Source of the DNA: a virus
Taxonomy: Duplodnaviria > Caudoviricetes
IMG/VR virus record: IMGVR_UViG_3300020043_006997
Location: 1-26,396 of that record
Strand: one strand, 5' to 3'
Length of the DNA stretch: 26,396 nucleotides
The stretch's first letter is position 1. Each line of letters starts with the position of its first letter. The notes beneath the pieces are model-generated. The model ran no database searches, had not been told where the DNA came from, and saw only the letters and a list, made by a program, of their open reading frames with translations. Made by a program: the position numbers and the translations under genes. Positions 122 through 17,093 of the stretch are shown here, piece by piece.

Positions 122-922
122 TACACCATTTGCTTTCTCTTCACAACCTCTTCCTACATTAATGTCAGCATCTGGTGGTACTGTTACCACCGATGGTGAT
201 TATAGAATACACACTTTTAACTCAAGTGGTTCTTTTGTAGTTGGAATATCAGGATTATGTGATATTCTAGTTGTAGGAGGAGGCGGTGGTGGCTCTGATC
301 CTAACTTAGGAGGCGGAGGCGGTGGTGGAGTACTTTATGGTGTTTCACAAAATCTTAGTGTAGGTACCTATACTGTCAACATTGGTGGAGGTGGAGGTCT
401 TAATAGTGTTGGATTTGATACTGTTTTTACAGGTAGCAACTACAGCGTAATAGCTAAAGGAGGCGGAACTGGAGGAGGAAATGGTGGTTCTGGTGGTGGT
501 GCAAATGCAGGAGCAACCCCTGGCACATCTACTCAAACTACCGGTTCTTTAACTAACTTTACTGCTTACGGAAATGCTGGTGGTAACCAAGCTGATAACA
601 CTGCTGGAGGCGGAGGCGGAGGTGCTGGTGCCGTAGGAGGAAATGCTAATAGTGTTAATGGAGGTAACGGAGGTGATGGTATACAACTTTCTATTTCAGG
701 TACCCCAACTTATTACGCTGGAGGCGGTGGTGGTGGAGATCAAACCACTGGTACAACATCTACTGGAGGTCAAGGTGGTGGAGGAAATGGTGGAAACAAT
801 CAACAGGTCCTACAGATGGTTCTCCTAATACTGGTGGTGGAGGCGGTGGTCAAAGTACTTCTGCTTCACCAAATGGAGTAGGTGGAAGTGGCATCGTAAT
901 AGTTAGATACAAGTTTCAATAA
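117..922 (+). CDS. Glycine-rich virion/tail-associated protein, interrupted by a -1 frameshift near 798-800
   Basis: SASGG...GDYRIHTFNSSG...LVVGGGGGG...YAGGGGGG architecture, paralogous to the C-terminus of 10006..15063. The frame starting at 800 gives STGPTDGSPNTGGGGGGQSTSASPNGVGGSGIVIVRYKFQ* (TAA 920-922), matching the paralog's NTGGGGGG...GGSGLIIVKYKYQA ending. Confidence 0.8.
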
Positions 923-3095: not shown

Positions 3096-3362
3096 ATGGG
3101 ATTTTCATTTCAAAGCGCTGAAGAGCGCAATCCAGAACTACAAGGACATAGTGGCATAGAAAGGCCAAAAACCGCTGAAGAGTGGGAAGCAGAAAAAGCT
3201 AATGATCTAAAAGCCATTAAGGAAGAACTAGACATGATGACTAACTTCCTTCAAGATAATGGTTACATAATGCTGTATGATCAGTATAAAGAAATCATTA
3301 AAGAAAGAGAACGCATAGCAGAGCTAGAACGTACCAGTAACGGATTTGAAGAAGTAAAATGA
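3096..3362 (+). CDS. Hypothetical protein (acidic, helical)
   Basis: 88-aa ORF, A-rich leader, ATGA-coupled to the next gene. Confidence 0.65.
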   Translation: MGFSFQSAEERNPELQGHSGIERPKTAEEWEAEKANDLKAIKEELDMMTNFLQDNGYIMLYDQYKEIIKERERIAELERTSNGFEEVK

Positions 3363-3646
3363 TTCTTTCAGTAGTAAAAATAGTAGCTGTTGTATTATTA
3401 GCAGTAAAATATTTCAGTCCTCTAGAGCCAGCTAGAAGATGGATAGTTGATAAACTAGTTCATTTGATGCTAAAGCCAGGATTTCATTGGGTAGATAAAG
3501 TTATAACATTAATAACATGTCCAATGTGCGTTAGTTTTTGGAGTATATTGGTTATAATGCATTCACTCCCGTTAGCTGCCATAGGTGCGTTAATAGCAAG
3601 AATAATCGATTTAACAATAGATTTTTTACAATATGGAAATAAGTAA
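3359..3646 (+). CDS. Small membrane protein with CxxC motif (holin-like candidate)
   Basis: Hydrophobic segments flanking LITCPMCVSFW; 95 aa. Confidence 0.55.
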   Translation: MILSVVKIVAVVLLAVKYFSPLEPARRWIVDKLVHLMLKPGFHWVDKVITLITCPMCVSFWSILVIMHSLPLAAIGALIARIIDLTIDFLQYGNK

Positions 3647-3926
3647 AGAAGATGCTATTTGGGCAGTAACCGAATATAATAGCAAACGTGGTTATGGTAG
3701 AGTAAATGATTGGATTGACTATCATTTAAGATTAATGAGCATGATTAAAGGACAAACTGTAGGCAGACCATCCTGCTCGTGTGAATATGGAGCAATAGCT
3801 CGTATGGCAAACTCAATGTATGAGCAACATGAAGCACAACTTCAAGCGATTGCTTATCCCCCAGTTATAGAAGAATCAGTTATCAAAACAAGTAAAAAAC
3901 GTGGCTCAACAAAAACAGGGATTTAA
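3633..3926 (+). CDS. Hypothetical phage protein with SCSC motif
   Basis: 97 aa, RPSCSCE motif, basic tail; in the operon upstream of the terminase genes. Confidence 0.65.
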   Translation: MEISKEDAIWAVTEYNSKRGYGRVNDWIDYHLRLMSMIKGQTVGRPSCSCEYGAIARMANSMYEQHEAQLQAIAYPPVIEESVIKTSKKRGSTKTGI

Positions 3927-4131: not shown

Positions 4132-4170
4132 TAGGTAAGTATGTATTGATATATACAATAAATCTACAAT

Positions 4171-4581
4171 ATGGCAGGTAATAAACTAACACATACCGAA
4201 GTAGACGAAAGAGTCGATAAATGTTTTGAGTTAAGATTCAAGACCGACCCTCCTATTCAACAAAGGGAATGGATAAAGTATTGTCATAAACACTATAGTG
4301 ACAAATCTGAACAACAATACCATCAGTATTGGGCCCAAGCAAAGGAAAGATATGATGAGGGATGGAGAGCCAAACTCAGTCAAATGCTAGATCCTGCAAT
4401 GGACCAACTATTTGCTTTATTATCGAGTGATGATGAAAAAATCCGCCAACGCGCAATAGATCAAATAGTAAAATACACTGGAAACGATATTCAAAAGATT
4501 GAAGCCAAGATTGAAGGCAATATTCAGTTAAACTGGGGCAATGATTTGGATAACGATAAGGAGTGGCAAGATAAAATGTAA
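4171..4581 (+). CDS. Probable terminase small subunit
   Basis: Helical 136-aa ORF directly upstream of terL with TAATG overlap; C-terminal KIEAKIEGNIQLNWG beta-strand-like tail as in many TerS proteins; TATGTAT motif at 4140-4146. Confidence 0.6.
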   Translation: MAGNKLTHTEVDERVDKCFELRFKTDPPIQQREWIKYCHKHYSDKSEQQYHQYWAQAKERYDEGWRAKLSQMLDPAMDQLFALLSSDDEKIRQRAIDQIVKYTGNDIQKIEAKIEGNIQLNWGNDLDNDKEWQDKM

Positions 4582-5849
4582 TGAATATAACGCTATTTTC
4601 TCCACATGAGGGCCAGCGTAAAGTAATAGAAGGTTTCGCTGATTCACCTCATAAGTTTGGTGTAGTTGCTACAGGTCGTCAGTTTGGTAAATCACTGCTG
4701 GCTCAAAATCTTATGTTATATTGGTTATTGTCAAATAAAGGACAGAAGGGAGCCTGGGTAGCTCCAATCTATAATCAATGTAAAAAAGTATTTAACGAGT
4801 TAACAGCAGCATCTTATGAGATTATTACTAAGCAAAATAAAGCTGACCTTACTATTGAGTTTATTAATGGCAGCACTTTACAGTTCCTTTCAGCAGACAA
4901 CTACAATAGTATACGTGGCTTTTCCTTTCATTACGTGGTTTTGGATGAGTCCGCCTTTATTAAGGAAGAAGCAGTAAATGAAGCTATATTTCCTACCCTA
5001 TCAGCGTTAGGAAAAAAATGTTTAATAATAAGTACACCAAAATCAAAAAACTGGTTTTATACGTACTACCTTAAGGGACTCAACGAGGGTAGTGATTATA
5101 TCTCGTTTCAAGGTATATCAACGGATAATCCGCATATTTCACAAGAGTTTATAGCCGAACAAGCTAAATCCTTACCTATTGAAATATTTAAACAGGAATA
5201 CTTAGCTGAGTTTAGTGAGGCAACAAATGATGTATTTAGAAACCTTGATAACGTATGTATATTAAATGAATGGGGACAACCACAAAGAAATACTGGATAT
5301 TATTACGGAGTTGACTCTGGATTCGCTAATGATTTTACCGTATGCGTCATTATTGAGGAATCCGGCCGCGTCGCGAAGATTCTTAGATTTAATGGGACAA
5401 CATTTGAAGAGGCTGGAAAGACTATCGTCACTGAGCTACGAAAATATGGTGTTAGAGGAGGATACTGCGAAAGGAATGGCGTGGGTGCAGTCATTTTTGA
5501 GCTCATCCAATCCTCCGGAATCAAAACCACAGGATTCAACACCACCCAAGAATCCAAAACCAGAGGCGTCAGGAAGCTTGTAGGCGATATTGAAGAGGGA
5601 ATAATAATGTTACCCTCAAAAACATTAATGCCTGAGTGTTATAATGAACTTTCATCATACACTTACAAAATATCAGCTAATGGTGGTATTTCATTTACTC
5701 ACCCCCCAGGTTATCACGATGATATAACTGATGCTTTATGGTTAGCTAACTTAGCACGTAATGAAATAGCATTTAGTAAAAGCAAAATATACATTGGTGG
5801 TTCTAAAATGAACGAAGCTACTAAAATAGCAATGAACTGGGGAGTATAA
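4581..5849 (+). CDS. terL: Terminase large subunit
   Basis: Walker A GRQFGKS, Walker B VVLDE, coupling motif ISTP, FKQEYLAEF linker, nuclease motifs GVDSG..DFTV and HDDITDALWLA. Confidence 0.95.
   Translation: MNITLFSPHEGQRKVIEGFADSPHKFGVVATGRQFGKSLLAQNLMLYWLLSNKGQKGAWVAPIYNQCKKVFNELTAASYEIITKQNKADLTIEFINGSTLQFLSADNYNSIRGFSFHYVVLDESAFIKEEAVNEAIFPTLSALGKKCLIISTPKSKNWFYTYYLKGLNEGSDYISFQGISTDNPHISQEFIAEQAKSLPIEIFKQEYLAEFSEATNDVFRNLDNVCILNEWGQPQRNTGYYYGVDSGFANDFTVCVIIEESGRVAKILRFNGTTFEEAGKTIVTELRKYGVRGGYCERNGVGAVIFELIQSSGIKTTGFNTTQESKTRGVRKLVGDIEEGIIMLPSKTLMPECYNELSSYTYKISANGGISFTHPPGYHDDITDALWLANLARNEIAFSKSKIYIGGSKMNEATKIAMNWGV
5266..5583 (+). CDS. Candidate overprinted gene (+1 frame inside terL), 105 aa
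   Basis: TATGTAT motif at 5254-5260, 5 nt before the ATG; local GC rise (about 47% in 5341-5580 vs about 30% in flanks, hand count) coincides with the ORF. Confidence 0.5.
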   Translation: MNGDNHKEILDIITELTLDSLMILPYASLLRNPAASRRFLDLMGQHLKRLERLSSLSYENMVLEEDTAKGMAWVQSFLSSSNPPESKPQDSTPPKNPKPEASGSL

Positions 5850-6261: not shown

Positions 6262-6299
6262 ACTTGATTGCCTCAATATCGTGTCGTATATTTATATAT

Positions 6300-15365: not shown

Positions 15366-17093
15366 ATGGCAAACAACGCAACAGCAACAGCTAACGTAAA
15401 CGTAACTACTAATACTTCTCAAGCAGAAGCTCAGATTAATCAACTTGAAGGTTCTATTAAGGTATTAGATGGTGCTGTTAACCTTGTAGGTGGTTCATTA
15501 GAGACAGTAGCAGGTGGGTTAGCTTTAACAGGAGCTTTATCAAAAGAACAAGCAGAACAGTTTGAAGCTGCTGCTATAGGTGCTATTGCATTTGCTGATG
15601 GTGCTAAAAGAACATTAGACGGTGTAGTAAACCTACAAGAAGGATTTAGTAAGTTAGCAGCTAATAGTAAGGCTGCAGCTGCTGCTTCTCGTATTTTAGG
15701 TACCGCAATCAAAGTAGCTACAGGTCCTATTGGTATTGCTGTAGTTGCTATTGGTGCTGTTATTGGTATTTTAGTTAAGTTTAAAGATTCATTAGGTGTA
15801 GTAGGTGATGCTATTGATTTTGTCATTGGTGGTTTTAATAAACTTACAGATGCTATTGGATTAACTGATACCGCTGCTGCCAAAGAAATAGAAACTAATA
15901 AAAAGTTAGTTGAACAACAAGCATTTAGACTTGAGTTATTAAAAGCAGAAGGTGCTGATAGAAAAAAACTCGTAGAAGAAGAACGTAAACTTCTAAAGTT
16001 AAAAGTTGACGCTGAGGTAAAAGGTAGTGAAGAACAGAAAAAAGCTATCCAAGACCTTGCCTTATTTAATGCTAAAGTAAGAGGTGAAAATAAAGAAGCT
16101 GATAAAAAAGCAGCTGAGGAAAGATTAGAAAATAGTAAAGAAGCACAAGAACTATTTAAAGAACAACTACAGAAGTTTGCTGATGAAGAAGCCAATCTAA
16201 AGGCTAAAACTGATGAAGATAAACTTAAGTTAGATTTTGATAGAACTATCCGTGAAATAGATGCTCTAGAACTTAGTGAAAAACAAAAAGCAGAACTACG
16301 TTTACAAGCCGAAGAAAACTATCAAATACAAGTTGGTCAGTTAAAAGAAGACAAACTAAAGGAACAAGCCGAAAAAGAAGCAGCATTACAACTTCAACTT
16401 GATGAAGCACAACGTGAGAGAGATAATCAAAATCTTGTTGATTTTTCTGCTCAGTTAGATGAGATCTACAATCTACAACTTACTGACCAACAACGTTCAC
16501 TTAATGCTGTTCAAGACAAGTATTTTCAGTTAGAACAATACTATAAAGATGATGCTGAAGCGTTAAAGGCTATTGAAATCCAAAAACAAAAGGAAATAAC
16601 AGCTATTACTGAAGCTGAAGAAGCGGCTCGTAGACAAATAATAGGGGGTACTATTGATAATATACAAGGTGCTTTAACAGCATTATTTGGTGAAAACAAA
16701 GCAATCGCATCAGCAAACGTATTGATTGATGCCGCTCAAGCAGCTGTTGGTATCATTAAAAACTCACAATCAACTGGTCCTTTAGCTATTGCTTATCAGG
16801 TATCTCAGTTTGCATTATTAGCAGCTACTACTATAGCATCTTTAAGAGACATTAATAGTGCTCAACCAGGTTCAAGTAAAACCCCAACTATACCATCTCC
16901 ATCTCCAATAGGTGGAGGAGGAGCATTTACAGGTGCTTTACCTGGAACTGGTGGTACTCCTACTACAGGTATTCCTACTGCTGGAGGTGGAAGAACAGAA
17001 CCTATTAGAGCTTATGTTATAGCTCAAGATGTTACAACAGGACAAGAAGCAGATGCTGCTATCAACAGACGTAGACGTTTGGGTGGTGGATAA
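15366..17093 (+). CDS. Tape measure protein
   Basis: Ala-rich helical protein with hydrophobic GPIGIAVVAIGAVIGILV segment, long E/K/Q coiled coil and C-terminal IRAYVIAQDV; preceded by TATTTAT-tact-ATG (15355). Confidence 0.7.
   Translation: MANNATATANVNVTTNTSQAEAQINQLEGSIKVLDGAVNLVGGSLETVAGGLALTGALSKEQAEQFEAAAIGAIAFADGAKRTLDGVVNLQEGFSKLAANSKAAAAASRILGTAIKVATGPIGIAVVAIGAVIGILVKFKDSLGVVGDAIDFVIGGFNKLTDAIGLTDTAAAKEIETNKKLVEQQAFRLELLKAEGADRKKLVEEERKLLKLKVDAEVKGSEEQKKAIQDLALFNAKVRGENKEADKKAAEERLENSKEAQELFKEQLQKFADEEANLKAKTDEDKLKLDFDRTIREIDALELSEKQKAELRLQAEENYQIQVGQLKEDKLKEQAEKEAALQLQLDEAQRERDNQNLVDFSAQLDEIYNLQLTDQQRSLNAVQDKYFQLEQYYKDDAEALKAIEIQKQKEITAITEAEEAARRQIIGGTIDNIQGALTALFGENKAIASANVLIDAAQAAVGIIKNSQSTGPLAIAYQVSQFALLAATTIASLRDINSAQPGSSKTPTIPSPSPIGGGGAFTGALPGTGGTPTTGIPTAGGGRTEPIRAYVIAQDVTTGQEADAAINRRRRLGGG

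Follow-up and report, generated by a model that had tools for sequence, protein, structure and literature searches.

The gene for the large terminase subunit (terL) of a phage from a large uncultured clade very probably contains a second gene, separately initiated and selected as protein-coding sequence, which is read in the +1 frame over the nuclease domain of the terminase protein (TerL). This reading draws on the frame-specific avoidance of stop codons, a start codon that is kept or compensated, an upstream motif that is conserved with the frame and decays along with it, the choice between polar and hydrophobic residues in the product, the absence of the gene from distant terminases, and losses nested within the clade that carries it. 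The hidden gene likely originated a single time over the older terL, and some lineages later lost it.

The window, i.e., the whole stretch of DNA that was analysed, is a complete virus genome of 26,396 bases with direct terminal repeats. In this genome, terL occupies positions 4581–5849 on the plus strand and encodes 422 aa (Pfam Terminase_6N, E 2e-16, and Terminase_6C, E 5e-9; PHROG 2, E 1e-53), with the ATPase at approximately residues 31–221 and the RNase H-like nuclease, which corresponds to the Terminase_6C match, at residues 243–386. The preceding gene (4171–4581, plus strand) is likely the small terminase subunit (terS), based on position and conservation; it has no family match at E 0.001 in Pfam or PHROGs, its family lies immediately 5' of TerL in 71 loci with an open +1 frame and 16 with a closed one, and a TATGTAT is located at 4140, 24 nt 5' of it. 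Other window products recognised by Pfam and PHROGs are a portal, an XkdF-type protease, a tape-measure-like protein, and glycine-rich tail proteins. The same two collections recognised neither an endolysin nor a holin, DNA polymerase, or helicase in the record, which is classed as complete. Two minus-strand genes lie at 925–1981, one of them a GIY-YIG nuclease and the other without a family match, and a 251-codon antisense ORF (15440–16195, minus strand) is found within the tape-measure-like gene, its composition mirroring that of the sense frame (GC3 0.12). A cultured close relative was not found among annotated phages (best TerL identity 30%), and the nearest TerL matches in the genome collection, 37–40% identical, are located in bins from different phyla. 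The host of the window phage may be a member of the Bacteroidota, given the weak Bacteroidetes-type sigma match of the ORF at 2259–2816 and the rarity of Shine–Dalgarno words before starts (GGAG or GAGG ahead of 15 of the 340 starts in the phage group). The former ORF (plus strand) encodes a sigma-70/ECF-like protein (TIGR02985, E 1.1e-5, far under the curated cut-off; phrog_79, E 5.7e-6) and is present in all 30 open and all 5 closed loci that cover its position.

The overprinted ORF spans positions 5266–5583 on the plus strand, starts with ATG, encodes 105 aa, and covers TerL codons 229–334; it lies over the nuclease domain, as the first-pass annotation had reported, and overlaps the Terminase_6C match. 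A +1-frame stop at 5263–5265 directly abuts the ATG in the window sequence. The ORF can be further differentiated into a conserved core (residues 1–72; TerL codons 229–300; positions 5266–5481), which shows the stop avoidance and is predicted to form a helical hairpin, and a variable 3' extension (5482–5583) including a Pro/Ser-rich tail, with disorder predicted from residue 81. None of the 17 window genes examined contains a longer stop-free stretch in an alternative frame of the same strand (105 codons, followed by 81 and 71), and synonymous resampling of the window TerL alone yields 7.8 expected stops within the ORF (P ~8e-6). A minus-strand ORF at 5303–5557 was rejected as a candidate, because it is not conserved (768 stops versus 496 expected in its frame).

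The first-pass annotation had read the region as dual-coding and had named stop avoidance among relatives as a way of checking this. A first set of relatives, for which each scan retained the 80 best of its more than 500 confirmed matches and which therefore leans to close relatives, comprised 179 loci besides that of the window. Twelve of these were dropped (six too short, six with TerL interrupted by an internal stop or shift); clustering of the other 167 loci and the window at 90% nucleotide identity gave 103 clusters, with TerL identities of 50–89%. The stop expectation was conditioned on each TerL sequence and on codon use outside the region. In TerL codons 229–300, two +1 stops were seen versus 521 expected across the 103 clusters among the matches listed, and 102 of these clusters contain no such stop at all, the exception being L017. 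The subsets below 75% nucleotide identity (41 sequences) and below 70% (21 sequences) likewise contain two stops each, versus 216 and 110 expected, and alternative null models still expect many stops (516, 360, and 180). The +2 frame of the same codons carries 892 stops versus 869 expected, and the +1 frame in the rest of TerL carries 1581 versus 1852 and 543 versus 583; no other frame or TerL region shows comparable avoidance in the 103 clusters, and sampled 72-codon windows starting at or before codon 221 are stop-free in 0–3 of about 103 sequences. Moreover, the avoidance depends on sequence context: where a purine follows, TA-ending codons for Leu, Ile, and Val account for 0 of 974 inside the region versus 1808 of 3657 outside, while before a pyrimidine such codons stay common inside it (224 of 463). 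At codons 301–334 stops return near the expected rate (250 versus 308), and the minimum length is sharp at 72 codons; the first +1 stops fall at TerL codons 301–342, which implies a conserved core of about 72 residues followed by a variable tail. In an extended set, in which the frame is open in 109 of 117 clusters at a TerL identity of at least 50% among the matches listed, the open relatives at 51–89% TerL identity lend support to the dual-coding reading, in which translation itself is predicted. A frameshift splits terL in one of the contigs (L344:10001-11250).

It is exceedingly improbable that the open frame is a by-product of the TerL amino-acid sequence or a recombined GC-rich patch. 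The window does have an unusually strong GC peak, with 112/240 over positions 5341–5580 and 82/240 and 80/240 in the flanking 240-base blocks, and its GC excess of 0.117 versus a mean of 0.046 ranks first among 102 sequences. The GC rise described in the first-pass annotation is thus real, but the neighbouring sequence is at 33–34% rather than about 30%, and the strong peak is lineage-specific, with GC being higher in the core in 101 of the 102 sequences by 0.05 on average. The 5' boundary of the open frame is identical across the clade, which argues against a recombined patch, and the context-specific avoidance described above speaks against a by-product. A natural control for stop avoidance is provided by a closed sister lineage of seven clusters, in which the upstream motif is absent and the homologous TerL region carries 54 stops versus 54.8 expected.

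TerL is the older, host gene of the overlap, the phylogenetic range of the +1 frame is narrower than that of TerL, and the open frame is restricted to one clade. A second set added 131 loci, of which 95 passed and 36 had no match at E 1e-30, to give 39 new clusters; these comprise 7 open clusters (51–57% identity), 7 closed clusters (54–58%), and 25 distant clusters (27–40%), all 25 of the latter having stops in the region. In trees rooted on three distant TerLs, L017 is nested in an open group and the seven-cluster closed lineage is nested inside the open clade; with the overlap columns removed, a single clade of open rows was rejected (p-AU 5e-9, 35 rows), the groups having been named after the first tree. 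Within the loss lineage, L331 contains a 60-codon remnant of the ORF (profile match, E 1e-8). The simplest reading of these sequence patterns would be one gain and at least two losses, and the ORF is dispensable on an evolutionary scale.

In loss lineages, a small acidic gene lies between terS and terL (L323:7168-7392 and relatives; L331:9841-10026; L288:19-243); in the main loss lineage it is found 5' of terL (13 closed and 0 open loci), and it often overlaps the start of terL by about 60 bases. For the small protein of L331 there is a match to Pfam UVR (E 4.6e-7), while the main family is UVR-like by eye only, and none of 100 +1 products matches UVR (PF02151) at E 0.05. As a candidate replacement, this gene was rejected as a copy of the +1 product: the two are unrelated (profile–profile probability 0.1%), L016 and L017 are without the gene, and L331 has a UVR gene at this site in addition to the ORF remnant. 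Similarly, the search for a co-lost partner yielded no clean candidate among window genes 3096, 3359, and 3633. The latter two (3359–3926) are small, Cys-containing, and present in 38 of 38 and 42 of 45 open lineages, respectively; the main loss lineage has neither, but both are kept in L016 and 3633 also in L017, whereas gene 3096 occurs in none of 11 closed loci and is also lacking from 7 of 32 open loci.

The start codon of the ORF is kept or compensated across the clade. Where TerL has Asn or Asp at position 229 followed by a codon starting with G, all 71 cases use the codon that creates the ATG, versus 1086 of 1480 elsewhere; among the 31 sequences without ATG at 229, 29 carry an ATG at codons 231–234, i.e., two to five codons later, and an early ATG is absent in L067 and L121. 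The shifted state requires at least seven changes on the starred branches of the tree, on which two rows with insertions are mislabelled as lacking the shifted ATG. ATG frequency alone is not special, because a +1 ATG is equally frequent in the five-codon window 213–217 (0.98) and nearly so at codons 376–380. Alternatively, a programmed frameshift could join the TerL ATPase to a new helical C-terminus instead of the nuclease; the +1 frame indeed opens at the ATPase–nuclease linker, and a fusion of this kind is known from one database protein (P0005). However, a +1 stop adjoins the first ATG in 58 of 102 sequences, a shift would have no need of the maintained ATG, no conserved slippery site was found (the best heptamer occurs in 16 of 102 and is of the -1 type), and fusions in the opposite order exist too (P0012), as indel errors would give, all of which renders a frameshift very unlikely. 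Database proteins in which the +1 product is fused to sequence from the TerL frame or from elsewhere (P0005, P0012, P0007, and P0010) are probably indel or assembly errors.

The ORF is preceded by TATGTAT (5254–5260, plus strand), a likely internal promoter element written into TerL codons Val225-Cys226-Ile227 of the ATPase–nuclease linker. The arrangement TATGTAT-attaa-ATG at 5254–5268 is as first described, but what had been taken for the phage's own motif lies one mismatch off the usual motif of the group, TATTTAT. In 59 long loci, TATTTAT shows a 9-fold intergenic enrichment, ranks first of 21 same-composition words, and stands 38 times at 4–6 nt before an ATG; the corresponding values for TATGTAT are 4-fold, 20th of 105 same-composition heptamers, and once. 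With TATTTAT as the real start motif of the group, TATGTAT can be regarded as a one-mismatch variant of it that is compatible with Cys226 of TerL. The upstream heptamer reads TATGTAT in 59 and TATGTAA in 20 of 102 sequences, and GTA is used for 74 of 84 Val at codon 225 versus a background of 0.49, whereas for TGT at codon 226 a 40-sequence subset gives no significant preference (p 0.19). TATGTA(T/A) is present at 76 of 85 open versus 0 of 21 closed loci, the closed loci being mostly of one lineage. TATTTA at 5233–5238 (plus strand; TerL codons 218–220) is possibly a second upstream element, with GTA at codon 218 in 74 of 102 sequences versus the background of 0.49. A sigma-70 consensus site at 5235–5263 was dismissed as being at chance level (11 found versus 12.6 expected), and RNA structure around the ORF start is unremarkable.

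In the window, TATTTAT is also found 4–6 nt before ATG at 6289, 6644, 15355, and 17100. The TATTTAT sites of the window suggest leaderless late transcripts, and the sigma-like protein of 2259–2816 is a candidate reader of the TAT(T/G)TAT motif. TATGTAT would then be a promoter read by this protein; in the proposed mechanism, an internal phage promoter in the TerL linker would likely drive transcription of the ORF, the resulting nearly leaderless message would likely be translated from the ATG of the ORF, and the timing would be late in infection.

At codons 222–229, synonymous change amounts to 0.54 of the expected value, whereas the reduced synonymous variability anticipated in the first-pass annotation did not materialise in the body of the ORF, where it is hardly lower than elsewhere (0.88 versus 0.91). 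This constraint, being strongest at the motif and the start, and the combination of near-total stop avoidance with weak sequence constraint would also fit a situation in which the act of translation is selected, with ribosomes covering the 5' part of a terL-internal transcript that serves downstream genes and the protein being incidental. Such an explanation is unlikely, in that the +1 frame terminates at least 250 bases before the end of terL, the 72-codon minimum length is sharp, and hydrophobic/polar selection acts on specific columns of the product.

Amino-acid conservation of the product beyond the level forced by TerL is small, with an identity of 0.305 versus 0.261 simulated and with controls also showing gaps of 0.03–0.05. 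The hydrophobic/polar class deviation has a mean z2 of 12.1 in the core versus 3.2–5.6 in controls, under a null that does not absorb the local GC3 shift; 25 of 68 core columns lie beyond 3, mostly towards polar, and hydrophobic residues are held at product positions 12, 39, 47, and 50. For instance, TerL has Ile, Ala, Ser, Val, or Leu at codon 278, yet 91 of 102 sequences encode Leu there in the +1 frame. The helical periodicity of the selection signal is weak.

The products are 72–113 aa in length (median 87), have a mean column identity of 35%, and are acidic, with a median net charge of -4 over the first 72 residues (100 products). From 100 products, AlphaFold2 gives helices at residues 3–29 and 33–80 (pLDDT 83, pTM 0.57), with pLDDT below 60 after residue 80; from 51 products without the window, it gives helices at 6–30, 33–57, and 61–71 (pLDDT 79, pTM 0.65). 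The same hairpin is obtained from these two alignments with different first rows, the alignment signal partly reflecting TerL constraints, and the +1 product is predicted to be a soluble, acidic, two-helix hairpin. The models agree with the helical N-terminal part and disordered tail of the first-pass annotation, but the Pro/Ser tail is a lineage-specific, variable extension. A membrane anchor is absent, as the best 19-residue hydropathy has a median of 1.14 and exceeds 1.6 in 10 of 100 products, and a lipobox-like pattern occurs in just 4 of 100, with no hydrophobic signal. The product has no family match in Pfam, PHROGs, or NCBIfam; its best PDB match by sequence is at E 0.28, ESM Atlas returned no usable match, Foldseek returned 0 matches at E 0.001 against viral structures and the PDB, and the best VIA-align score (Z 9.4) is to generic hairpins, in a range that the tool deems uninformative for helical models. 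Moreover, tblastn found no match in 50,697 phage records, and a search of 108 long loci for a stand-alone copy found none (best E 0.023). Fifteen profile matches, all without genomic context, include 11 that resemble the same +1 products by eye and 4 that are long and weak. Near-length database matches number 2 in 5.8 billion clusters, which indicates that gene callers almost always miss the +1 product.

Out-of-frame genes that lie fully inside a late gene are exemplified by the o-spanin gene Rz1, embedded in Rz of phage lambda. Gene 18.7 of T7 is similarly embedded in 18.5 according to the T7 annotation; the present ORF shares this arrangement, but its host gene is that of TerL rather than an i-spanin, and its product is without lipobox or membrane segment. 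T7 genes 19.2 (85 aa) and 19.3 (57 aa), annotated as hypothetical, lie wholly within gene 19 (terL) in the +1 frame (NC_001604) and are conserved among T7 relatives according to the accessible portions of PMC8365609 and PMC4925675. Like them, the ORF is small and nested in terL in the +1 frame; unlike them, it starts behind a phage promoter-like motif at 5-nt spacing, with the Shine–Dalgarno words being as rare as given above, and it shows no sequence similarity to them (profile scores of at most 0.3 bits), the terminases themselves giving no significant alignment. The suggestion of 19.2/19.3 as lysis candidates, made in the accessible part of PMC8365609, and the lack of a recognised endolysin or holin in the genome would accord with a lysis accessory of the embedded-spanin or holin type, but the missing anchor and the scarcity of lipobox-like patterns leave this function very little likelihood. 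In mycobacteriophage Patience, embedded out-of-frame proteins were detected by proteomics, as given in the available portion of PMC4324244. Like the de novo overprinted viral accessory proteins covered in the available sections of PMC8227390, a review of small eukaryotic viruses, the +1 product has a restricted range relative to an old host frame and is accessory and losable; unlike those proteins, its conserved part is predicted to be an ordered hairpin and only its variable tail disordered. In the literature searched, which consisted mostly of open papers without their supplements, no publication on the +1 ORF was found. As far as these searches reach, the kind of gene is known, and the family, the soluble fold, the linker-encoded start signals, and the traceable gain and loss are new.

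The predicted hairpin would act through binding another protein. One possible, rather tentative reading is that the gene is real and its product host-directed, e.g., a late anti-defence or protease-adaptor-like binder, which is a sub-case differing in the partner. The fast divergence, the acidic charge, and the repeated loss of the ORF are consistent with a host target, as is the statement in the available sections of PMC8227390 that de novo overprinted proteins are mostly accessory and, in eukaryotic viruses, often directed against host defence; however, the divergence is largely imposed by TerL, and the product has no similarity to any family or structure. A partner within the phage's own packaging or head-assembly machinery is tentatively favoured, because of the location of the gene, its likely late timing, and its forced co-inheritance with TerL. 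In its fullest and still speculative form, the proposal would be that a de novo folded protein, encoded in the terminase nuclease domain and expressed through a linker-encoded promoter and leaderless start, binds and tunes the phage's own packaging motor, and that more than 100 variants record its birth, start turnover, tail growth, truncation, and death.

Terminase genes serve as the standard marker of tailed phages and are regarded as coding for a single protein. Throughout the large clade of uncultured phages described here, a second constraint acts on about one-sixth of TerL, and frame-specific stop avoidance offers a simple test that is applicable to other terminases. The set of loci documents the natural history of a de novo DNA-phage gene in unusual completeness, with the loss lineages as built-in controls, and it suggests that overprinting on a conserved enzyme can give rise to an ordered fold.
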